Below, piece by piece: positions 15,449-30,220 of a DNA stretch of 32,000 nucleotides. The DNA is taken from NCBI GenBank assembly GCA_965261025.1, contig OZ253438.1, positions 270,001 through 302,000 of the forward strand. Direction: 5' to 3'. Every line of letters begins with the position of its first letter. The stretch's first letter is position 1. The DNA is from Chlamydiales bacterium (lineage in GTDB: Bacteria > Chlamydiota > Chlamydiia > Chlamydiales > SM23-39). Made by a program: the position numbers and the translations under genes. The notes below the pieces were generated by a model, which was not told where the DNA came from, did not search any database, and worked only from the letters and a program-made list of their open reading frames with translations.

Positions 15449-17164
15449 ATGAAATGGGCTGTATTTCTCCTTCTTTCTCCTTTTTTTCTTTTGGCAAAAG
15501 AGGCTTCTTTTTTTCAGGAGGATCTTCGAAGAATAGAAAAGCTTCTTTTTATAGAAAGTTTTTCTACCGCCTTGAAGATTTCTTCTCAACTTTTAGAAAA
15601 ATATCCAGAAGAAAAAGAAGTTCAATCTATTCATATCCAGAGTCTTATAGGTATAAAAGAGCCTGCAAAAGCTTTAGAGTGTTATCTGAGGTGGGAGCAA
15701 AACTTTAAAGACTTTACTCTTTTAGAAAAGATTTGCTGGGCTTTTTTAGAGGAAGGGGTTTCTTCTTCTCAATACGCTGTGCAGATAGCCTCTTTAATGG
15801 GAGCTTTTTTTACCCAGGATGCAAAGACAGTTCTCATCTTGTTAAAAATGATGGATAGCTCTCATGCTGCAGTTCGTTCTTTAGCCGTGCAACTTTCTGG
15901 ATATTATGGTGATCAAAAGTTGAAAGAAAAAATAGGGAGCCTTGTCAAAAAAGAAAATGCCTGGCCTGTCCGCCTTGAATTGATTCAAGCTTTAGGAAAG
16001 CTTGGGATAAAAAAAGAGAGAAGCTATTTAGAAAAACTTTTAGAAAAAGAAGAAGGGGTTTTAGAAGAGAAAATGGCAGCAATTCAAGCCCTTGTAGATA
16101 TGTATGAGGAGGTTCCTTGGGAAAAAATTTCTCCTTTGGTGAAAAGCCGAAGGGCATATACCAGGATTTTAGCATGTCGGTTGATTTCTCATTTTTCTAT
16201 TAAAAAGGCAAGGGGATATCTAGTTCCTCTTTTTTACGATGAACACCCTCATGTTCGAATAGAGGCTTTAAATGCTTTTGCTCTTACCTTCTTTTCTGAA
16301 ATGGATCAGGAAGAAGAAAAAATAATAAGAAGACTTGCTCACGAAAAGCATCCTTTTGTTGCTATTACAGCTAGTTGGATTTTATTTTTAAAAAATCCCA
16401 AACAAGAGTTTTTGCTCAAAAGGTGGTTGGAAGCAGAAAAGAAAGAAAATAGGTGGGTAGCTTCCGCAGCTCTTTCAACAGCAGGACAAAGAGGAATTTT
16501 GTTAGCAAAAAAAATGATCCAAGAAAGTAAAGATCCCTACGTTCGGGTAAACCTTGCTTTAGGTCTAATCCGCCATGGAGAAAAAGGAGAAGAGGAAAAA
16601 GAGATTTTAGTAAAAGCCCTTAACAAAGAAGGGCAAAGATGGATGAGAAGTAATGTTTCGAATTATTTATTTCCCATGTTAGTTCCTTCGAACTTAGTTC
16701 GAGAAGGCTCCCACTTTTCTGTTCCAGAACAGGAAGATCAAAAGGCTCGTTTTGAGATGATATCCCTTCTTGCTTTGCTAGGGGACTGTAGAGCAGAGCA
16801 GTATATTCATAGCCTTTTAGCAAAAAATTCCCTTCTAACAAAGGAGGCTCTTTTCTTTCTTTGGAAGGAAAAACCTTTCTTTTCTTCAGAACTGATAAAC
16901 CTTCTTCTGAAAGAGGGAAAAGAAGAACAAAGGCTGCAAAAAGCTCTTGTTTTAGCGATTTTTGCCAAAGAAGAAAGAGCTTTACAAGAGCTGGAAAAAG
17001 CGTATTTTTCTGCAAGCTATGAACAAAAAATTCAGATTTTGGAAGCGATGTTTCAAATAGGCAGAGTAGAGAATGCTTCCTTTTTCAAGAAGGTACTGCA
17101 AGAGCCTTTTTTGACACTTCGCATTCTTGGAGCTTCTGCTTTTTTACAAGCTATAAAAAGATAA
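15449..17164 (+). CDS. HEAT-repeat protein with an N-terminal signal sequence
   Basis: 571 aa. 'MKWAVFLLLSPFFLLAKE' is signal-like. There are repeated 'D..(H/W)..VR..A..AL' HEAT/PBS-lyase-type units. Confidence 0.65.
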   Translation: MKWAVFLLLSPFFLLAKEASFFQEDLRRIEKLLFIESFSTALKISSQLLEKYPEEKEVQSIHIQSLIGIKEPAKALECYLRWEQNFKDFTLLEKICWAFLEEGVSSSQYAVQIASLMGAFFTQDAKTVLILLKMMDSSHAAVRSLAVQLSGYYGDQKLKEKIGSLVKKENAWPVRLELIQALGKLGIKKERSYLEKLLEKEEGVLEEKMAAIQALVDMYEEVPWEKISPLVKSRRAYTRILACRLISHFSIKKARGYLVPLFYDEHPHVRIEALNAFALTFFSEMDQEEEKIIRRLAHEKHPFVAITASWILFLKNPKQEFLLKRWLEAEKKENRWVASAALSTAGQRGILLAKKMIQESKDPYVRVNLALGLIRHGEKGEEEKEILVKALNKEGQRWMRSNVSNYLFPMLVPSNLVREGSHFSVPEQEDQKARFEMISLLALLGDCRAEQYIHSLLAKNSLLTKEALFFLWKEKPFFSSELINLLLKEGKEEQRLQKALVLAIFAKEERALQELEKAYFSASYEQKIQILEAMFQIGRVENASFFKKVLQEPFLTLRILGASAFLQAIKR

Positions 17165-17222: not shown

Positions 17223-17855
17223 ATGGAACCTTTGGGCTTAATAGAAGCTATTGTATATATCAATCTCAAGAAACGAGATGATCGAAGAAAAAGTCTTTTA
17301 CAAGAGCTAAAAAAATTAAGAGTAAACCTCAATAAGGTGTTTCGAATAGAAGCTTTTGAGGAAAAGGAAAATGGGACCAGAGCTTGCGTAAGGAGTCATA
17401 TTCAAGCTTTGGAGCTGGCTTATTATAAAAAATGGAAGAGTGTTTTAATTTTAGAAGATGATGTTATTTTTTCTTTAGACCCAGAAAAAATCTCTAGGTA
17501 CATCGCTTCTTTTCTTAGGCATTTTCAGGATAAATGGGATGTTTTTTTCTTGGGAACGGAAATGGTTGCTTCTAAGCCAACAGACCATCCTTTTTATTTT
17601 CAGATTCTCTTTTCTATAAGAGCTCATGCCTATTTGGTAAATGGTCCCTATGTAAAATCCTTACGGGATTTTTTCATTAGGGTATATAGATCTATGCAGA
17701 AGGATGAAAGCCACGCTATTTCCTTAAAAAAAGGGCTCGATAAAGAATGGGTTCATCTTCAAATGAAGGATCGATGGTTTTGTGGAAAATCTATAGTGGC
17801 CTTTCAAAAAAAGGATTTTAGCGATATTGATCAAAAGTTAAAAAATCAGAGGTAG
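17223..17855 (+). CDS. Glycosyltransferase family 25 (LOS/LPS beta-glycosyltransferase-like)
   Basis: 'YINLKKRDDRR...FRIEAF...CVRSHIQALELA...VLILEDDVIF' is the GT25 pattern. Confidence 0.7.
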   Translation: MEPLGLIEAIVYINLKKRDDRRKSLLQELKKLRVNLNKVFRIEAFEEKENGTRACVRSHIQALELAYYKKWKSVLILEDDVIFSLDPEKISRYIASFLRHFQDKWDVFFLGTEMVASKPTDHPFYFQILFSIRAHAYLVNGPYVKSLRDFFIRVYRSMQKDESHAISLKKGLDKEWVHLQMKDRWFCGKSIVAFQKKDFSDIDQKLKNQR

Positions 17856-17949: not shown

Positions 17950-19317
17950 TTACCAGTTTTCAGATTTTTTAAAGTATTGCCAAATCCCTTTTAGTCTCCA
18001 GTATATATAAAGCTGTCGGAATCCAAAATTTTCTGAAAAAGAATACCAAAGAAGGCGAAGGATTTGTCGCAAGTATTGATACCTCCGAAAACTGGTGATC
18101 TCCATAGAAACAGAGACAAAGCTCAAAGCTATAGTTAGTCCCCAAGAAGCAAGAAGATAAAGGAGCGGAGCAATCCAGGGAATAACCCCTATGATAAGCC
18201 CTATAATCATCATGAGAAACCCTACCACTTCAACGACAGGCTCGAGCATTTCTCCAAAGAGATAGTAAGGATAAACAAGTAACCCTGCGAGACCATATTT
18301 GGGATTGAAAAGGAGGTATTTATATTTTACAAGTCCCTGAATCAACCCCTGATGCCACCTTGCCCGTTGCTTGGATAGAGCTTTTACGGTCTCAGGAACT
18401 GTTGTCCAGGCAACAGGATCTGGAATAAACAAAATGGGTCGACGAATTCCTTTTTTAGCTTGTTGTATGAAAAGACGTAAGGTAAACTCAAAGTCCTCGC
18501 CAATGGAAGTAACATCGAATCCTCCCGCTTCTAAAACGGCTTTTCTATCGAAAAGACCAAAGGCACCAGAGATAATGAAGTTGCCTCCTAAATAGTTCCA
18601 TCCAAGCCTTCCATATAAAAAAGAACGTAAGTATTCTGCTACTTGAATTCCAGGAAGATATTTTTTAGGGATATCTATTTTTTCAATTTTTCCCTCCTTG
18701 AAGGTACAGCCATTTAAAATACGAAGAGTGCCCCCTTGCCCGACTACATTATCGTGTAATAAAAAAAAGCGAGTCATTTTTAAAAGCGCGCTTTTTTCCA
18801 GGTAAGTATCTGCATCGATGATAGCTATTAAAGAAGAGATGCTATAGTTGATCCCTGCATTATTGGCGTCACTTTTTCCTCCCTGCTCTTTATCAATGAC
18901 AAACAAGTTAGGGACTAAATTAGAGCGGTAAAATCCTTTTACTGGCTTGCTTTTTAAAGTAGGGGGAGTTTGGGGAAGGACGGGATAAAGTTCATAGGTG
19001 TCTTTTAGTCTTTGTAGGGAATCGTCGGTAGAGCCATCATTTACAATGATAATTTCTTTAGAAGGGTAGGAAACCTCTAAAATCCCTTCAATAAAGCCGC
19101 AAAGAGACTCTCCTTCATTATGAACCGGAATTACAATAGAAATAGAAGGAAAAGAGTCTGAGGAAGCTATAACTTGGTCATTTTCTGATAGGGTTTCTTT
19201 AAAACGCCTTCGAATGGCGGGAATGGAGAGTGCTATGAGGAGAATATAAAAAGAATTTATGATTAAAAAGTAGATAACAAAATAAAACCCTGTGGTGCTA
19301 ATGATATGTTCTATCAT
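17950..19317 (-). CDS. Processive family-2 glycosyltransferase (PgaC/IcaA/NodC/cellulose-synthase-like) with flanking TM helices
   Basis: 'IVIPVHNE', 'VNDGSTDD', 'IDADT', 'GEDFEFTLRL' and 'QRARWHQG' (QxxRW) are present. There is an N-terminal TM segment and about four C-terminal ones. Confidence 0.85.
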   Translation of the reverse strand: MIEHIISTTGFYFVIYFLIINSFYILLIALSIPAIRRRFKETLSENDQVIASSDSFPSISIVIPVHNEGESLCGFIEGILEVSYPSKEIIIVNDGSTDDSLQRLKDTYELYPVLPQTPPTLKSKPVKGFYRSNLVPNLFVIDKEQGGKSDANNAGINYSISSLIAIIDADTYLEKSALLKMTRFFLLHDNVVGQGGTLRILNGCTFKEGKIEKIDIPKKYLPGIQVAEYLRSFLYGRLGWNYLGGNFIISGAFGLFDRKAVLEAGGFDVTSIGEDFEFTLRLFIQQAKKGIRRPILFIPDPVAWTTVPETVKALSKQRARWHQGLIQGLVKYKYLLFNPKYGLAGLLVYPYYLFGEMLEPVVEVVGFLMMIIGLIIGVIPWIAPLLYLLASWGLTIALSFVSVSMEITSFRRYQYLRQILRLLWYSFSENFGFRQLYIYWRLKGIWQYFKKSENW

Positions 19318-19392: not shown

Positions 19393-20886
19393 ATGGGAAA
19401 AAGATTTTTTCTTTACTCCATCTGGCTTTTTGCTATTTCTCTGTTGATTGTCCAGATATCCTTGGGAGGATATTTTTCCTGGGATGTGGGCCGCCTTGCA
19501 GAAAAAGGGATCCAGGTTCTTCTTAATGGAGCTATTATCAGCCTCCTCATTTTTGCTGTAAGTGGGGCCTTATTTCACTTTGTAGTTACTCAGAAAAAAA
19601 ATTTTTTCCTTTTAGGGGGGGCTTTTTTTTGCATTTCTTTTTTAGAAGTTTTTGTTTTTTTTCTCGTAGAAAAATGGATTTCTTTAGGAATTCCTTACCA
19701 GGAACAAATAACTTTTGCTATTTGGTTTAGCCTCTTTTTACAAAAAATTTTCCTTTTTTTGGGAGGACTTTGGTTTTGCTTTTGTGGGAAAGAAACCTCC
19801 ACTAAGGTGTGTTGCACTACTTTTGCTGTATTTATGTTTGCCTTCCTAGGCTTTACTATGTATTTCGGAATCTATCAAAATTATTTTTTATTTTTATATC
19901 AAAAAATTTCCCCTCTTCCAGGTATCTATTTTTCTTCTACGCTTTTTTTTCTTCTTTTTTTACTTCCTGCTTTAGTAAGGCTTTTTTTCTCAGAGAAGTC
20001 CTATTTTTTCCTTTCCGTCTTTCTTTTTTTTATTCCGCAGTTGATAGGAGAAAATACCTTTTTTTATTTTGCCGGGAAAAATTTTGATCAAGCTTTGGCT
20101 CTTTTTTTTCTATTAGTTTTGGTCTCTACCATCCCGTTGATCTTGGGCATTACGCTAGACAATTTTTATCTGTTTCGTCAGCAGCAGAGGATAGAGGCTT
20201 TTTCTGTCAGAGAATCCGAAGGAAAAACCCGTTTCATTAATGCCTTAACGCACGAGATTTTAAACCCTTTAAATGCGGTGATGGCCTATAACCAACTTCT
20301 TTCGGAAGGGCTAGAAGGAGACTTGAATGCTGTGCAGAAAGATACTATGGGAAAGTCTATGAAAGCTTGTGAGAGACTACAAAACCTGGTAGAAGAGCTC
20401 TCCACTTTGTCCAAAGCAGAGCAAGGGAAATTAGGGTATAACTTAGAAAAGCTAGATATAAGAAAAGAATGGGAAGCTTCTTTGCCCGTGCTACAAGAAA
20501 TGGGAAAGAAAAGAGAGATCGAAGTTCAGCTGCAAGGGGAATCTAAGTCTTTTATGATAAAAGCAGATAAGAGGAGATTTTCCCAGGTAGTTCTAAATCT
20601 TTTCCTATATCTTTTTCATTTTTTTGAAAAGACTCAAATTCTTATAGAGATAAAAGAAGCTCAAAGCCTTTTTACAGTCTTAGTGAAAGGAAAAAAACTT
20701 TCACAGATAGAATCAGTAGATCTTTCTTCCATAAACCGGTTCGCTCTCCTTTTTTCAGAGGTGAACGTGCGCCCTTTTCTCTGGATCTCCCTTTGTGAGA
20801 AGCTCTTTAAAGAGCAGGGAGGGGAACTTATAGTAAAACAGGAAAAGGAGGGGCTTTGTTTTTATGGGAAATTACAAAAAGTATAG
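19393..20886 (+). CDS. Polytopic sensor histidine-kinase-like protein with an intact H-box and a degenerate ATPase domain
   Basis: The N-terminal domain has about 8 TM segments. The HisKA motif 'FINALTHEILNPLNAV' is present. The N-box position reads 'VVLNLFLYLFHF'. There is no DxGxG or GxGLG box. Confidence 0.65.
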   Translation: MGKRFFLYSIWLFAISLLIVQISLGGYFSWDVGRLAEKGIQVLLNGAIISLLIFAVSGALFHFVVTQKKNFFLLGGAFFCISFLEVFVFFLVEKWISLGIPYQEQITFAIWFSLFLQKIFLFLGGLWFCFCGKETSTKVCCTTFAVFMFAFLGFTMYFGIYQNYFLFLYQKISPLPGIYFSSTLFFLLFLLPALVRLFFSEKSYFFLSVFLFFIPQLIGENTFFYFAGKNFDQALALFFLLVLVSTIPLILGITLDNFYLFRQQQRIEAFSVRESEGKTRFINALTHEILNPLNAVMAYNQLLSEGLEGDLNAVQKDTMGKSMKACERLQNLVEELSTLSKAEQGKLGYNLEKLDIRKEWEASLPVLQEMGKKREIEVQLQGESKSFMIKADKRRFSQVVLNLFLYLFHFFEKTQILIEIKEAQSLFTVLVKGKKLSQIESVDLSSINRFALLFSEVNVRPFLWISLCEKLFKEQGGELIVKQEKEGLCFYGKLQKV

Positions 20887-20889
20887 GTT

Positions 20890-23205
20890 ATGGGAGAAGT
20901 AAAAACCTTTTTTTTTTCAGGGCAAAATGGGCAAGTAGGAGAACATCTGAAGCAGCTTGCCGAGAAAAAAGGAATTTCTCCTGCTGGTAAAGAGGAAGAG
21001 GCTTCCCTCTATTTTTTAGAAACCTCTGACGTAGAGGGAGCTTTAAAATTTTTTTCTGAAAAAGAGAATATAAAAGGTATAAAAAGCGTAATCTGCTCTC
21101 CGGAATCCTACCCTTCTTTTGTTGAGGCAAAAAAAGAAAAAAAGTATCAGGGAGTTTTCAAGCAGCTTTTAGAAGAAGAAGTTCTACAATTTTTTTTCTC
21201 CTTGTGTTTATTGCCTAAGTATTCAGAAAAAGCAGATATGGAAGTTCTTTTTGAAGAGTATAAGTGGAGTTTGCTTGACAAGTATTATATTTTAAGGGAT
21301 TTAAGAGAAGGTTTTTTACAAAATAAAAAAAAAGAGGATCTAGAAGCCTTAAAAAAAGCTGTTCATAAGCTTGCGGGAAATTCAGGTTCTTACGGTTTTT
21401 TGAAGGTAAGTGAGCTTTGTAAAAAAGAAGAGCAAGATCTTGAAAAAGGGCTACAAGAAATAGATAAGAGGGACTGGGGTAAAGAGCTTCCCTCTTTCTT
21501 TTCTTCTTTACTTGCAGCTTTTTCAGAATTTTCTCCTCAAAAGCAGGCAGAGCCGGAAAAGGAGGTTTTAGAAAAAAAAGAGGGTACGAGTCTATATCTC
21601 ATTGATGATGACGTAGATTTTACCAATTTAATTAAGCAAGTAGCTCTTTCTAAGAATATAGCAATAGAAGTAGAAAATAGCTTTTTAGCTGCAGAAAAAA
21701 AGTTAGCAGATGCAGGATTTCAACCGAGGATCATTTTATTTGATCTGGTTTCTGAAAAAGAAAGTCTTTCTGGGCTTGATTTGGTACAAAAGTATACAGA
21801 GTCGCATCCGCAAAAAGGAGATACTGTTTTAGGTATTCTTTCTGCCCAAGGGGAAGCTTCCTTTCGTTCTGAGGCGGTGAATAAATCGATAGATCTTTAT
21901 TTACAAAAACCCATTTCTCCAGAGGGTCTTTTAAGCCAGATTGAACTGATACTTTCTAATAAATTAGAAGGGGGAGGTTCTCTTTTTTTAATAGATGATG
22001 ATTCTGATTTTTGCCAGTTTTTTACAAAAGTTTTTGAAAATACCCCTTGGAAGGTAAAAACGGCCTCTTCTTGTAAACAAATTTTCCAAGATTTAGAGAG
22101 TTTTTCCCCTGATCTTCTCTTTTTAGATATTGAAATGCCAGAAATAGACGGAATCCAAGCCTTGAAAATGGTGCGATCTGATGCACGGTATAATTCCTTG
22201 AACGTATTTATTGTGACAGCAAAAAAGGATCCGGAACATCTTCGTTTTTTAGCTCAGCTGGGTATACAAGGGTTTCTGTTAAAACCTATAGAGCCTAAAG
22301 AGCTTCAATCCCAAGTAAGGGCCTTTTTTCAAAAACAAGAGGCTCTGAGTATTATTTATAAAAAGGATCCCTTTTTAGGGGTCTATCAGAAGAGAGCTTT
22401 AGAAAGTTTTTTAAAGACCTTAATAGTTCAAGAAAAAGAATTTGGGATTGTGCTTTTTCAGGTAGAAGAATTTTCCCCTGAGAAGAAAGAAAAAGAAAAG
22501 TGGAACTATTTTACAACTTCTTTGAATCAATTCTTTCCTCAAAAGGATCTTGCAGGAGTGTGGGCCGAAAAAGAGATAGTATTAGTTTTCTCTACTTTTC
22601 CTAGAAAACTTCTCTACCGTCTTGTCCATAGCTTCCTTCAATTTTTAACAGAGGATGAAAAATTAAAAAGTTTGTTCGAAGTATTCAAAATATACACCTC
22701 GATTATTTTTTACCCAGAAGAGGGGAAAAATATAGTGGAGCTTATAGAAAAAGGGAAAAGACTGATTCAAGAAAAAAAAGGCGAGAAAAAGTGGGGGGTT
22801 TTTGGGGAAGAAGGACTTTTTGGAACAAAAAGAACAGGAAAAAAGGCCTTAATGGTCTCCTCTGATGAAGAAATTCGAACCGTATTACGCTTTTATTTGC
22901 AAAGAGAGCATTTTATTCTTATTGAAATACCTACAGGAAAAGAGGGTCTTTCCTGGATCCATAAGAAGATGTTTGAAGAAAAAGTCGATTTCATCATTTT
23001 AGATATGGATCTACAGGATATTAGTGGGATTCTTTTTTTGGAAAAACTAGCCACATTTTCCGGAGAAAAAATTCCCTTAATGGTGTTGTCCTATCATAAT
23101 AGGGATAAGGAGATACTGGAGATCTTCTCTTTAAAAAACATCATCTATATTCAAAAGCCTTTTAGTTTAGAAGCTTTTTCTAGGAGGTTAGAGCAGCTTT
23201 TATGA
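20890..23205 (+). CDS. Multidomain phosphorelay protein: HPt - REC - REC - degenerate GGDEF - REC
   Basis: HPt: 'AVHKLAGNSGSYGF'. REC modules: 'LYLIDDD...ILFDL...QKP', 'LFLIDDD...LFLDIEMPEIDG...VTAKKD...LKP' and 'IILDMDLQDISG...QKPF'. The GGDEF-like block has 'DLAGVWAEKEIVLVF' in place of 'DL...YGG(D/E)EF'. Confidence 0.7.
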   Translation: MGEVKTFFFSGQNGQVGEHLKQLAEKKGISPAGKEEEASLYFLETSDVEGALKFFSEKENIKGIKSVICSPESYPSFVEAKKEKKYQGVFKQLLEEEVLQFFFSLCLLPKYSEKADMEVLFEEYKWSLLDKYYILRDLREGFLQNKKKEDLEALKKAVHKLAGNSGSYGFLKVSELCKKEEQDLEKGLQEIDKRDWGKELPSFFSSLLAAFSEFSPQKQAEPEKEVLEKKEGTSLYLIDDDVDFTNLIKQVALSKNIAIEVENSFLAAEKKLADAGFQPRIILFDLVSEKESLSGLDLVQKYTESHPQKGDTVLGILSAQGEASFRSEAVNKSIDLYLQKPISPEGLLSQIELILSNKLEGGGSLFLIDDDSDFCQFFTKVFENTPWKVKTASSCKQIFQDLESFSPDLLFLDIEMPEIDGIQALKMVRSDARYNSLNVFIVTAKKDPEHLRFLAQLGIQGFLLKPIEPKELQSQVRAFFQKQEALSIIYKKDPFLGVYQKRALESFLKTLIVQEKEFGIVLFQVEEFSPEKKEKEKWNYFTTSLNQFFPQKDLAGVWAEKEIVLVFSTFPRKLLYRLVHSFLQFLTEDEKLKSLFEVFKIYTSIIFYPEEGKNIVELIEKGKRLIQEKKGEKKWGVFGEEGLFGTKRTGKKALMVSSDEEIRTVLRFYLQREHFILIEIPTGKEGLSWIHKKMFEEKVDFIILDMDLQDISGILFLEKLATFSGEKIPLMVLSYHNRDKEILEIFSLKNIIYIQKPFSLEAFSRRLEQLL

Positions 23206-24281
23206 GTCGTTGGTTTTTTTTAGAGAAATTAATTTTTTTTGAATTTGTCATTCTTTTCTTTTTTATTTCTTTGATCCTCTTTGTCTCTTTTTTTTATGAA
23301 ATTTCTAGCAAGATAAAGCAAAGAAAAAAAAAGGTGATCCAAGAAATATTAACCCACTTTCTAGCGGAGCAGATTTATGTAACGGATATTGTAATACCTG
23401 AGTATTTAAGAGATTTTGAAATTTTTATCAGCGTTATAGAAGAATTTGATATAAAAATGACGAGCCTTTCCTGGACTCTTATGAAGGAATGGGTGATTCA
23501 TGACATCTTTAAAGAAAAGCTAAGAAAGACGCTCTCATCTAGCTTTTGGGCGAAAAATCTTCTTGCTTTAAGAGCGCTAAATCTTTCTCCTCGAGTTTCT
23601 TTCTTAGAGAAGGTAAAACCTTTTTTAGAAAAAACCAGACCCATTCTTCGATTTTCCGCTGTACCCATTTTAATCCAGATGGGGACAAAAGAGGCTATTT
23701 ACAGTGTAATAAAAGCCATGGCAAAAGAGTCTAAAACAACCCAGTATCCCTATAGAGATAACCTTTTAAAAGCCCCTGTTTTTATATATAAAATCTTACA
23801 AGAGCTTTACCACAGTTGTCAGGAAAGAGAGATGCGTCTTTGTTGTTTAAAGGTCTTATCTACAAAAGTAGGTTTTTTACAATATACAAGTTTAGAGAAA
23901 GATTTACATGGTGAAGACTTAGAAGTAAAATGGTGGGCTATTAGAGCGCTAGCAAATAATCCCTCAATGGAGATTTTTTCTTTTTTGAAAAAGCAGGTAG
24001 AGGACAAAGACTGGAGAATCCGTTCTCTTTCCTGGCAGATTTTAGGGAGAAATAAGCTTCATGAAGATTTGGGCTTTTTTACAAAGGGGTTAGAAGATGA
24101 GCACTACTGGGTTCGTATTTGTGCCGGATGGGCTATAAAGGGGCAAGGAGAAGAAGGGATAAAAATTTTACAGAATCAGACACAGGAAAAACAGACAAGC
24201 TTTTCTGTTTCACAATATGTTTTACAGGCTTCCTATGCAGAATTTGAAAAGAATTTGGAAACCATGTCAGTATACTTGTAA
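23202..24281 (+). CDS. Membrane-anchored HEAT-repeat protein
   Basis: N-terminal TM 'LIFFEFVILFFFISLILFVSFF'. C-terminal repeats 'DLEVKWWAIRALA', 'DKDWRIRSLSWQILG' and 'DEHYWVRICAGWAI'. Overlaps the upstream gene by ATGA. Confidence 0.6.
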   Translation: MSRWFFLEKLIFFEFVILFFFISLILFVSFFYEISSKIKQRKKKVIQEILTHFLAEQIYVTDIVIPEYLRDFEIFISVIEEFDIKMTSLSWTLMKEWVIHDIFKEKLRKTLSSSFWAKNLLALRALNLSPRVSFLEKVKPFLEKTRPILRFSAVPILIQMGTKEAIYSVIKAMAKESKTTQYPYRDNLLKAPVFIYKILQELYHSCQEREMRLCCLKVLSTKVGFLQYTSLEKDLHGEDLEVKWWAIRALANNPSMEIFSFLKKQVEDKDWRIRSLSWQILGRNKLHEDLGFFTKGLEDEHYWVRICAGWAIKGQGEEGIKILQNQTQEKQTSFSVSQYVLQASYAEFEKNLETMSVYL

Positions 24282-24284
24282 TGT

Positions 24285-25373
24285 ATGGATTTTTCTTGGA
24301 AAAAATATTATAGGACTCCCTCTAAAAAGCAGGAAAAAATTGCTGACAAATACAATAGGGAAGGAAAAGTTGCTTGCTTTGTTTTTGCAGGAGGAATGGC
24401 TTCTCGCTTAAATCTTTTTGGAGCGAAAGGGTGTTTGCCTGTGACTCCTTTTAAGAAAAAGAGTTTTTTTCAGATTTTTTTTGAGAGGGTAAAAGCTTTT
24501 GAAAAGCATTTTACTACTCAAGTAGAAGTGGGTATTATGCTTTCTTCAAAAAATGAAAAAGAAACACGTGTTTTTTTACAAAAGAAGCATTATTTTTCCT
24601 TTCCCCCTTCTCAGATTACCTTTTTTTTGCAACCAGATTTTGTTTGTTTAGATGATAAGGGAAAAAAGCTCTCCTCAAAAGCACCTTCTGGTAACGGAGC
24701 GGCAATCTTTTTATTGAAAAAGAGTAAATGGCTCTCTTTTTTGCAAGAAAAGGGGGTAGAGTGTGTTCATTTTATCCCTGTGGATAACCCTTTGATAGAT
24801 CCCTTAGATAGCGCTCTTACAGGCTCTCTTATAGAAAACCAGTGGGATGTAGTCATTTCGGGGGTAAAAAGGAAGAAAAGAGAAGAAAACTTGGGGGCGC
24901 TTTTTTTTGAACAAGATAGGCTTAAAATCAGAGATTACATGGAGCTTTCCCAAAGAAAGCAGTATCTTCCTGTATTAAGTACAGGGCAGTATTGCCTTTT
25001 TCTTCCTTGGCTTATTTCTGCCATAAAAAAAGCAAAAATGCCGATTCATTGGGTAGAAAAAAAGCTAACAAGAGCGGGAAAACAGGTGCGTAAAGGGGAG
25101 ATGTTTTTCTTTGATCTTTTTCAAAATAAGGGAAAAGTAGGGGTTTTATGTCGCAACCGCCGGCTTTTTTTTTCCCCTTTTAAAAGAGAAGAAGAAATAA
25201 AAAAGATGCAGCGAGATTTTCTAAAGAGAGATAAAGCGCTTTTAGAAAAAATCTCTGGAAAAAAAGGAAAGGGCCCCTATGAATTGGGCGCCTGTTTTTT
25301 TTATCCTTCCAAAAAGTTAATTCAAAGATGGAGGAAGAAAGACTTGCCGGAAAAAGGATATATTCCCTATTAG
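24285..25373 (+). CDS. UDP-sugar pyrophosphorylase family protein (UDPGP/UAP1-like, divergent)
   Basis: 'FAGGMASRLNLFGAKGCLPV', 'PSGNGAAIF' and 'HFIPVDNPL' parallel the L(A)GGxGTRLG / GNGG / VDN motifs. Confidence 0.6.
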   Translation: MDFSWKKYYRTPSKKQEKIADKYNREGKVACFVFAGGMASRLNLFGAKGCLPVTPFKKKSFFQIFFERVKAFEKHFTTQVEVGIMLSSKNEKETRVFLQKKHYFSFPPSQITFFLQPDFVCLDDKGKKLSSKAPSGNGAAIFLLKKSKWLSFLQEKGVECVHFIPVDNPLIDPLDSALTGSLIENQWDVVISGVKRKKREENLGALFFEQDRLKIRDYMELSQRKQYLPVLSTGQYCLFLPWLISAIKKAKMPIHWVEKKLTRAGKQVRKGEMFFFDLFQNKGKVGVLCRNRRLFFSPFKREEEIKKMQRDFLKRDKALLEKISGKKGKGPYELGACFFYPSKKLIQRWRKKDLPEKGYIPY

Positions 25374-25397: not shown

Positions 25398-26411
25398 TTA
25401 AGGAAAAGAGGGAATGGGAGGAGAAGGATTTCCCTCTATTACAATCCAGTCTTTTAAGATAATATCAGAATCGAGTCTTTTTCTAGATAAAAACCAGGGG
25501 GATCTAGCTATTACTTTTTTCTTTTTATAAGGATTTAAATAAGCACCCCACCAAGAAAAGGTAGAGGGAGAGGTAATGACACTTTTACAAAGACTCATAA
25601 GGTAAAGATCGTGATGAGCTTCTTCATTCTCTATGAATAAAAGCTTTTTTCCGGGAAGATTGAGGTTTTTTTTACACCAAGGAATTGAATCAGAAAAAAT
25701 AATAAAAAGAGAGTCTTTCTCGAAAAGATCTGCTGCTTTTTGATAGTATAAAAGATCAGGGGCTGGAAAATTTTTATAAATAGAAGGACCTTCTAGTAAG
25801 AAGTCCTTATAAAAAGTGCGTACATGGAGAGCCACTGTTTTGGGGTGTTTGAGTAAAAAGCCATATTTTCCCTCCAGATAGGAAAGGATCTTTTCCGATG
25901 GAGCAAATAGCTTCAAGATTTTTTCTTTGTGTTTGATGAAATGCTTCTCTGACTCATAAAAACCAGATAGTCGCATGTTTGGTTTAAAAGCAATAGGAGA
26001 AAAAGGGGCAAAGACTCTCTCTTTATGTTTATGTCTAATAAGGTATTTATGAATTCTTTTTACAGGCAGCCTGAAAAACACTTCTTCCATATTTTTAGCA
26101 AGATTTTGTTTTTCTATTTCTAAGCATTTTTCTGGGAGGAAGTATTCGGCCTTATTTTCCAAAGCAAGAGCAATGGTTGTAGCCATTTGAAAGAGCTGAT
26201 TTCCTAGCTGTCCTTCCGGCTTTATAGTAACAAAGGGAACGTGTTTTTCTAAAAAGGGGGATATAGGATCTTGGAATCTTTTTTGATAAAAAGGGGTAAT
26301 AGAGAAAAAAATCCAAGAAAAGCAAAAAAGGAGAAAAACAAGATAGTTAAAAATGGTGGTTTCCTTTTGCTTTTTTTCAAAGTTGCAGTGTAATTTGTGG
26401 ATAAGAAACAC
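25398..26411 (-). CDS. Glycosyltransferase family 11 (alpha-1,2-fucosyltransferase-like) with an N-terminal TM anchor
   Basis: 'GQLGNQLFQMATTIALA', 'ALHVRT', 'IIFSDSIPWCKKN' and 'DLYLMSLCKSVITSPSTFSWWGAYLN' correspond to the four GT11 motifs. Confidence 0.8.
   Translation of the reverse strand: MFLIHKLHCNFEKKQKETTIFNYLVFLLFCFSWIFFSITPFYQKRFQDPISPFLEKHVPFVTIKPEGQLGNQLFQMATTIALALENKAEYFLPEKCLEIEKQNLAKNMEEVFFRLPVKRIHKYLIRHKHKERVFAPFSPIAFKPNMRLSGFYESEKHFIKHKEKILKLFAPSEKILSYLEGKYGFLLKHPKTVALHVRTFYKDFLLEGPSIYKNFPAPDLLYYQKAADLFEKDSLFIIFSDSIPWCKKNLNLPGKKLLFIENEEAHHDLYLMSLCKSVITSPSTFSWWGAYLNPYKKKKVIARSPWFLSRKRLDSDIILKDWIVIEGNPSPPIPSFP

Positions 26412-28567: not shown

Positions 28568-30220
<1,653 letters not shown>

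Follow-up and report, generated by a model that had tools for sequence, protein, structure and literature searches.

What might a response regulator do when the diguanylate cyclase domain at its centre has lost the residues needed to make cyclic di-GMP (c-di-GMP)? This question is raised by a gene at positions 20890-23205 of a 32,000-nucleotide stretch of a Chlamydiales bacterium genome (contig OZ253438.1 of assembly GCA_965261025.1, positions 270,001 to 302,000 of the forward strand), which is referred to here as the window. The encoded protein combines a histidine phosphotransfer (HPt) domain and three receiver (REC) domains with a degenerate GGDEF domain, and its gene adjoins that of a HEAT-repeat protein anchored in the membrane and lies close to that of a glycosyltransferase family 2 (GT2) synthase. 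The analysis described here points to a conserved, constrained pseudo-cyclase, which may have become the output module of a protein switch that controls glycan synthesis without a second messenger.

Domain organization of the regulator

A model that read the sequence alone (the original prediction) had described the order HPt-REC-REC-degenerate GGDEF-REC, and this order is borne out by Pfam, run on the whole protein and then on isolated segments, by profile comparisons, and by AlphaFold2 (AF2) modelling followed by Foldseek searches. No transmembrane (TM) segments were predicted in the 771 residues. The layout of the protein, from the N- to the C-terminus, is as follows:

20890-23205, + strand: the whole multidomain response regulator, an open reading frame of 771 residues with an ATG start; soluble, with Pfam Hpt and three Response_reg stretches
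20890-21240, + strand: unassigned N-terminal region of about 117 residues, with a weak beta-alpha pattern only
21241-21534, + strand: HPt domain (Pfam Hpt at residues 136-192; 32.2 bits, with the cutoff at 24.6, and E=1e-7 for the isolated segment)
21586-21954, + strand: REC1 (residues ~237-352; Pfam 30.1 bits, borderline)
21976-22329, + strand: REC2 (residues 366-476; Pfam 84.3 bits), whose last helix runs on into the stalk
22294-22356, + strand: long predicted stalk helix from REC2 to the degenerate GGDEF domain (residues 6-26 of the AF2 model)
22357-22809, + strand: degenerate GGDEF (pseudo-cyclase) domain, supported by the family profile, the AF2 model, Foldseek and the motif alignment
22843-23202, + strand: REC3 (residues ~654-766; Pfam 54.3 bits)

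The N-terminal region stays unassigned, as had been noted originally, given that Pfam returned nothing above threshold for this segment of ~117 residues. The relatives of the regulator carry a genuine REC domain at this place. A degenerate receiver was considered for the region and rejected, as its comparison by hhalign with the REC-bearing N-termini of the relatives gave a probability of 0.6%, and the AF2 model reached a pLDDT of 55.

The degenerate GGDEF domain

The GGDEF domain lies below the reach of a simple domain search, given that Pfam GGDEF has no match in the whole protein at E<=1, and in the isolated residues ~470-646 it has a sub-threshold match of 15.7 bits (cutoff 23.8, E=0.014), which covers profile positions 62-157 of 161. 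The relatives of the protein are more informative. A single-sequence search of a collection of 5.8 billion proteins found only one close full-length homolog, P0002, from a metagenome-assembled genome (MAG) of the Simkaniaceae, which is 29% identical in an alignment that covers 86% of the query and is unbroken through the degenerate segment. The equivalent segment of P0002 passes the Pfam GGDEF cutoff with 30.5 bits, and the orthologous segments of P0036, P0039 and P0056 clear it as well. A profile built from two sequences and searched against the PDB matched diguanylate cyclases only (best E=1.3e-5), and with a profile of 17 degenerate members, all 15 matches were GGDEF chains, with a best E of 3.3e-12.

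The predicted structure agrees with these results. The AF2 model of the domain with its stalk, which was built on the family alignment, has a pLDDT of 86.7 and a pTM of 0.78, and the top 50 PDB matches returned by Foldseek were all GGDEF domains, with a probability of 1.00 and a TM-score of up to 0.77 on the target, including PadC, PleD, WspR, SadC and the diguanylate cyclase of T. maritima. The model opens with a long helix that is continuous with REC2, the counterpart of which is the stalk of the WspR, DgcR and PadC-type enzymes, and among both the Foldseek and the PDB profile matches, this helix is paired with a stalk or coiled coil, namely those of PadC, DgcR, the WspR-GCN4 fusion and DgcB. 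A PDB search with REC2 and the degenerate domain as a single sequence returned generic receivers only, with no discrimination between PleD and WspR. Another type of palm domain, as in the class III cyclases or Cas10, was ruled out, as all of the sequence and structure matches were to GGDEF domains. By profile and by predicted structure, residues ~490-640 thus represent a true GGDEF fold, i.e., a nucleotidyl-cyclase palm of the PF00990 superfamily, and the profile support that the original prediction had made decisive was found.

The active site was read from one alignment with relatives in which RxxD and GGEEF are kept (P0047, P0055, P0060 and P0063). At the RxxD position, the protein reads PQKD (residues 550-553, nucleotides 22537-22548), and at the GG(D/E)EF position it reads AEKEI (residues 559-563, nucleotides 22564-22578), both of which lie within PQKDLAGVWAEKEIVLVF, residues 550-567 of the protein. 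The replacement of GG(D/E)EF by AEKEI, and of the arginine of RxxD by proline, had been proposed from the sequence and is upheld by this alignment. In addition, the first metal-binding aspartate is replaced by glutamine (LFQVEEF), and the FKxxNDxxGHxxGD loop is ~6-8 residues shorter, with both the guanine-binding asparagine and the aspartate gone. An intact site elsewhere in the protein would have counted against the original prediction, and neither a GG[DE]EF-like motif nor an R..D motif was found in all 771 residues. Judged by its residues, the domain has lost both its catalytic site and the canonical site for feedback by c-di-GMP (the I-site).

The loop deletions are common to the whole degenerate branch of the family, and the RxxD of the I-site is lost in 13 of its 17 members, being kept in P0002, P0036, P0038 (RSRD) and P0039 (REQD). 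Mean pairwise identity in the family is 22% in the degenerate GGDEF domain, 17% in the N-terminus and 32-34% in the REC domains, and the domain has conserved residues that are specific to the branch (D493, Y499, F549, D553, G556, W558, P609, G612 and W635). Because its identity is above that of the N-terminus and it has conserved residues of its own, the domain is considered to be constrained, rather than decaying.

Among the relatives, the GGDEF active site appears to have decayed in several ways, by loop deletions in the branch of the window protein versus a loop of full length in P0052, P0054, P0059, L003 and L004, with the motifs NESKL, DEAEF, DNNIF, QSKGF and DHGRF. The relatives thus make up a graded series, from intact to fully degenerate active sites.

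Phosphorelay sites

The candidate phospho-histidine of the HPt domain is His159 (nucleotides 21364-21366), within VHKLAGNSGSYGF (residues 158-170), and its context, VHKLAGNSG, fits the HK.AG pattern of HPt domains (PF01627). Both this string and that of the GGDEF site were thus found where the original prediction had placed them. The phosphorylation site of REC1 is complete (D240, D241, D285, S318 and K340), as is that of REC2 (D370, D371, D413, T443 and K465). In REC3, the acceptor D705 is kept, together with S734, K756 and D659, and the first residue of the acidic pocket is Ser658, i.e., the pocket is half-lost. The earlier claim, which had granted the acidic pocket, phospho-aspartate and lysine to REC2 and REC3 at least, thus stands for REC2 and, the half-lost pocket aside, for REC3, and can be extended to REC1.

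Overall, 15 canonical phospho-site residues are kept in the window protein, the first acidic-pocket position of REC3 being the sole exception. These residues are conserved over the degenerate branch, rare single-member exceptions aside. For example, the HPt histidine is kept in 14 of the 15 members that cover the region and is lost in P0037 (locus L082). All five residues of the REC1 site are conserved over the degenerate branch, and the site is degenerate in the relatives with an intact GGEEF. By its residues, the protein has three receiver domains (PF00072) with the acceptor aspartate, threonine or serine, and lysine, which may be phosphorylated.

A small family and its known counterparts

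The architecture, which had been regarded as unusual, is not a one-off. HMMER, run exhaustively on 1.84 billion representative sequences, found ~20 proteins with the layout of the regulator at E<=1e-10, followed by a long tail of matches (1004 proteins at E<=1e-3), and the architecture is common to ~20 clusters at 50% identity. At E<=1e-10, the domain profile had no match in a word-indexed search. No relative shares more than ~30% identity with the window protein. For both the regulator and the GT2 synthase, the closest relatives that bear a name are from MAGs of the Simkaniaceae, Rhabdochlamydiaceae, Chlamydiales, Chlamydiia and Chlamydiota, and the family is apparently chlamydial. No description of an HPt-REC-REC-degenerate GGDEF-REC family, or of its module with HEAT and GT2 genes, was found in the literature, and the family is considered to be small and previously undescribed.

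One relative bears on the origin of the family. P0047, from a contig of JGI 3300072015, has intact RxxD and GGEEF motifs and the architecture REC-HPt-REC-REC-GGDEF, and it closes a complete chemosensory operon of the Wsp type, composed of REC, CheR-TPR, CheW, CheW, a methyl-accepting chemotaxis protein (MCP), CheA-REC and CheB, where it takes the position of WspR. This context hints at what the family did originally and at the ancestral logic of the system.

The Caulobacter protein PleD is a working cyclase in which both GGEEF and the RxxD of the I-site are present, and the second of its REC domains serves as an adaptor that cannot be phosphorylated. The designation of the window protein as PleD-like is justified by the REC-REC-GGDEF order, and PleD structures (9g85, 2wb4, 1w25 and 2v0n) are among the top Foldseek matches. 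However, REC1 (D285) and REC2 (D413) of the window protein both keep the acceptor aspartate, threonine or serine, and lysine, so that REC2 is not an adaptor devoid of its aspartate, the cyclase of the window protein is dead by its motifs, and PleD has neither an HPt domain nor a C-terminal REC. The REC-stalk-GGDEF arrangement of the WspR/DgcR type is the better analogy, because the only intact relative with a recovered context sits in a Wsp-type operon. The likeness extends to the REC domain, the long helix and the GGDEF fold, with structure matches to WspR (3bre, 3i5a and 3i5c) and DgcR (6zxm and 6zxb). On the other hand, the window protein is without GG(D/E)EF, RxxD and the guanine-binding loop, adds the HPt domain, two REC domains and the N-terminal region, and is encoded with HEAT and GT2 genes, rather than in a Che operon.

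Degenerate GGDEF domains are also known from PelD, Listeria PssE and Caulobacter PopA, c-di-GMP receptors for the control of polysaccharide synthesis or of localisation, which act through an intact RxxD I-site, PopA having the order REC-REC-degenerate GGDEF. The window protein resembles them in the use of a catalytically dead GGDEF domain as a regulatory module, and PssE and PelD are likewise linked to a glycan synthase (for PssE, see PMC4125290). By its motifs, in contrast, the window protein lacks the hallmark of these receptors, given the PQKD reading and the absence of R..D, and none of the three is known to have an HPt domain, a C-terminal REC or a TM-anchored HEAT partner. A further comparison is with the phosphorelays of the Rcs type, composed of a hybrid kinase, an HPt protein and a response regulator that control capsule or extracellular polysaccharide, in which an HPt domain and several receivers are also linked to polysaccharide genes. 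In the window, however, a single soluble chain unites the HPt domain and three receivers with a pseudo-enzyme as the output and no DNA-binding output domain, and all of the orthologs examined of the adjoining kinase-like protein are without either the histidine or the ATP site.

A module shared with other loci

The regulator gene is the second of four genes that are arranged head to tail on the + strand, with the gene of the synthase diverging from them:

17950-19317, - strand: processive GT2 synthase (DD98, DAD168, GED274, QRARW317) with flanking TM helices; divergent, 75 bp from the kinase-like gene
19393-20886, + strand: kinase-like, multi-pass membrane protein with ~7-8 hydrophobic segments (Pfam HisKA only); its stop is 3 nt before the start of the regulator
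23202-24281, + strand: HEAT-repeat protein of 359 residues with one N-terminal TM helix (Pfam HEAT_2); its start overlaps the stop of the regulator (ATGA)
24285-25373, + strand: UDP-sugar pyrophosphorylase of the UDPGP family (Pfam UDPGP, E=3e-17), which starts 3 nt after the HEAT stop and ends the unit of four genes

An AGGAGG sequence lies 15 nt upstream of the HEAT start, inside the coding sequence of the regulator, and this internal sequence and the ATGA overlap speak for a coupling of the translation of the HEAT gene to that of the regulator. HEAT proteins had been named in general terms as possible partners, and the relevant one is specifically this downstream, translationally coupled and TM-anchored protein.

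The regulator and HEAT genes are adjacent in nine of the 11 loci that carry members with the degenerate domain, the window included. The HEAT genes found downstream of the regulator in the eight other loci encode full-length orthologs of the window HEAT protein (E from 1e-22 to 1e-66), and a single N-terminal TM helix is present in all nine orthologs. The GT2 gene adjoins the module in the window and in L080, L081, L082, L084, L085 and L003. The first four of these other loci have the GT2 gene beside the series kinase-like, regulator and HEAT, and this same series is found in L083, whose contig has the kinase-like gene at its start. In L082, L083 and L084, a UDPGP ortholog directly follows the HEAT gene, as in the window. 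In L003, the order is REC, regulator, HEAT, TPR and GT2, all on one strand, and in L085 it is GT4, GT4, REC, regulator, HEAT, GT2, UDP-glucose dehydrogenase and epimerase, with the regulator, HEAT and GT2 genes on one strand. In L001, the regulator and HEAT genes are followed by a GT10 and two GT4 genes.

The synthase itself matches GT2 families and, weakly, Chitin_synth_2 in Pfam, and has a match to the PgaC/IcaA-like family of NCBIfam that lies below the cutoff. It carries the QxxRW signature of processive enzymes and no PilZ domain. The family to which it belongs is very widespread and well conserved, with 44-55% identity among the matches listed, which include Gemmatimonadales. Many members of ~711 residues are labelled at the source as "YaiO family outer membrane protein", a label from which it would seem that the enzyme may be fused to an outer-membrane barrel in these members.

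The kinase-like partner

The gene upstream of the regulator had been described as that of a pseudo-kinase, which is in agreement with the HisKA-only match and with the motifs, as the protein keeps the H-box histidine (LTHEILNPL) and has lost the N-box asparagine, the DxGxG of G1 and the GxGL of G2. These motifs were read from an alignment of the window protein with five orthologs, which are encoded at the following positions:

L080, 7091-8698
L081, 5979-7577
L082, 6496-8004
L083, 35-1582
L084, 8370-10004

The orthologs present other combinations of losses. The H-box histidine is replaced by tyrosine in L080 and L081, alanine in L083 and serine in L084, and in these four proteins the N-box and G1 motifs are intact, with a partly degenerate G2 (GISL) in L083. 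In L082, the histidine and the N, G1 and G2 motifs are all lost, and the regulator of this locus, P0037, is the one that is also without the HPt histidine. An acceptor histidine and an ATP site are thus found together in none of the six proteins, and by its motifs, no kinase-like ortholog is a canonical autokinase. In Caulobacter, DivL has a tyrosine at the histidine position. Possible roles or fates for this partner are the trans-phosphorylation of the HPt domain, with a split like that of a divided CheA, a pseudokinase like DivL, and decay.

Possible function and alternative explanations

The reading that we favour, with a probability put somewhat above even, is that of a phosphorylation-driven pseudo-cyclase switch that acts on the synthase via the HEAT partner, independently of c-di-GMP. 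In this model, the degenerate domain would be a pseudo-cyclase derived from the response-regulator cyclases of the WspR/DgcR type, and the protein would be a soluble phosphorelay hub with one HPt histidine and three receiver aspartates. The phosphorylation of REC2, modulated by the HPt domain, REC1 and REC3, would shift the REC2-stalk-GGDEF unit between the monomer and the dimer, or between conformations, as occurs in the active relatives. Rather than making c-di-GMP, the degenerate domain would then engage the membrane-anchored HEAT partner, through which the GT2 synthase would be reached, and the outcome would be a direct gating of the synthesis of a surface or extracellular glycan. The ancestral route, from phosphorylation to c-di-GMP to polysaccharide synthase, would in this way have been short-circuited into a messenger-free switch between proteins. 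A switch for the neighbouring synthase had already been suggested for the window, and the synteny with HEAT and GT2 genes in other loci strengthens this suggestion.

A number of observations weigh against this model. Four relatives keep the RxxD motif, so that some members of the family may still sense c-di-GMP, and the degenerate domain of the window may bind a nucleotide in a non-canonical manner. The view taken here is that of the 32-kb window, which matters with respect to c-di-GMP enzymes encoded elsewhere in the genome. Synteny does not single out which domain contacts the HEAT protein or the synthase, and around the relatives with a degenerate domain in L004 and L086, HEAT and GT2 genes are both absent. 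Finally, the motifs of the kinase-like protein upstream of the regulator are incompatible with ATP binding, so that this protein is not an evident source of the phosphoryl group.

A fuller scenario, which can be held only tentatively, is that of a Wsp-type pathway, from phosphorylation to c-di-GMP to exopolysaccharide, that has been rewired without its second messenger in a group of obligate intracellular bacteria believed to be devoid of c-di-GMP signalling. The pseudo-cyclase, dimerised upon receiver phosphorylation, would dock on the membrane-anchored HEAT adaptor and gate the processive synthase, and the kinase-like partner would be non-canonical, either as half of a split CheA that phosphorylates the HPt domain in trans or, like DivL, as a pseudokinase that reads the phosphorylation state of the receiver. 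It is rather unlikely that the regulator serves for the most part as a hub of a phosphorelay or as a phosphate sink, with an output by phosphotransfer from the HPt domain to other receivers, e.g., the single-REC proteins, and the degenerate domain as a dimerisation spacer that lacks a specific partner. The conservation of all four phospho-sites would fit this role, as would the faster evolution of the degenerate domain in comparison with the REC domains and the stand-alone REC genes that flank the module in L001, L003, L080, L081, L084 and L085, but no single-REC gene adjoins the module in the window, and the family-specific residues of the pseudo-cyclase (W558, W635 and others), together with the invariant coupling to HEAT, argue for a specific interaction surface. 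More doubtful again is a nucleotide receptor like PopA, PelD and PssE, which would bind c-di-GMP, or another nucleotide made elsewhere, and integrate it with phosphorylation in the control of the synthase. There is good precedent for the control of polysaccharide synthesis by receptors with a degenerate GGDEF domain, as in the case of Listeria PssE (PMC4125290), and four relatives keep RxxD at the I-site. The window protein, on the other hand, has PQKD at this site, no R..D anywhere and a deleted guanine-binding loop, and most of the degenerate branch shares the loss of RxxD. In addition, a census from 2005 reported that, of the signal transducers, the chlamydiae had kept none but histidine and Ser/Thr kinases (PMC1183210), which also speaks against a nucleotide receptor, although it predates the genomes of the environmental chlamydiae.

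That the module is a decaying relic of a reduced intracellular genome, with a dead kinase, a dead cyclase and no regulatory role, seems very improbable. The lost ATP-binding motifs of the window kinase-like partner, the joint loss of the kinase motifs and the HPt histidine in the L082 lineage, and the low identity of the window protein to its relatives would be expected of a relic, and yet the frame of 771 codons is intact and tightly packed in an operon, the 15 other canonical phospho-site residues are kept, and the module is conserved over deeply diverged lineages. Next to no chance is given to a cyclase that is still active with a non-canonical motif, for which there is the retained fold and nothing beyond, against the AEKEI motif, the glutamine at the metal-binding position and the deletion of the loop with the guanine-binding asparagine and aspartate.

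Degenerate GGDEF domains are common, and most of those that are understood are c-di-GMP receptors which act through RxxD. The present family has lost this motif, yet has been conserved and tightly coupled to HEAT and processive glycan synthase genes. If the pseudo-cyclase switch is real, it would illustrate how a pathway based on a second messenger can be reduced to a switch that acts directly between proteins. There would also be a regulated system for surface or extracellular polysaccharide in the environmental chlamydiae, for which little is known about the glycans of the envelope and of the developmental stages. The family also provides a natural series for the evolution of pseudo-enzymes, with intact members, intermediates that have the full-length loop, and fully degenerate members.

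Other genes of the window

The UDPGP protein of the window has 362 residues, versus 410-447 in its orthologs of L082, L083 and L084, and is ~60-80 residues short at the N-terminus, for which either a wrongly annotated start or a truncation of the protein may be responsible. Further genes lie on either side of the module:

15449-17164, + strand: second, larger HEAT-repeat protein of 571 residues, hydrophobic at its N-terminus and no ortholog of the HEAT partner encoded after the regulator
17223-17855, + strand: small GT25-like protein, which lies with the 571-residue HEAT gene just past the GT2 synthase
25398-26411, - strand: GT11 (fucosyltransferase-family) gene, convergent on the operon
28568-30202, - strand: GroEL-type chaperonin

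The place of the 571-residue HEAT and GT25-like genes is usually occupied, in the relatives, by genes for a large TPR protein and a GT4 enzyme. In the Simkaniaceae locus L001, a GT10 gene, also of a fucosyltransferase family, is found at the place equivalent to that of the GT11 gene of the window, and these GT11 and GT10 genes hint at a fucosylated glycan. The GC skew is negative over the chaperonin gene (~-0.29 at 29001-30000) and positive in the rest of the window, which probably reflects the strand of this gene.

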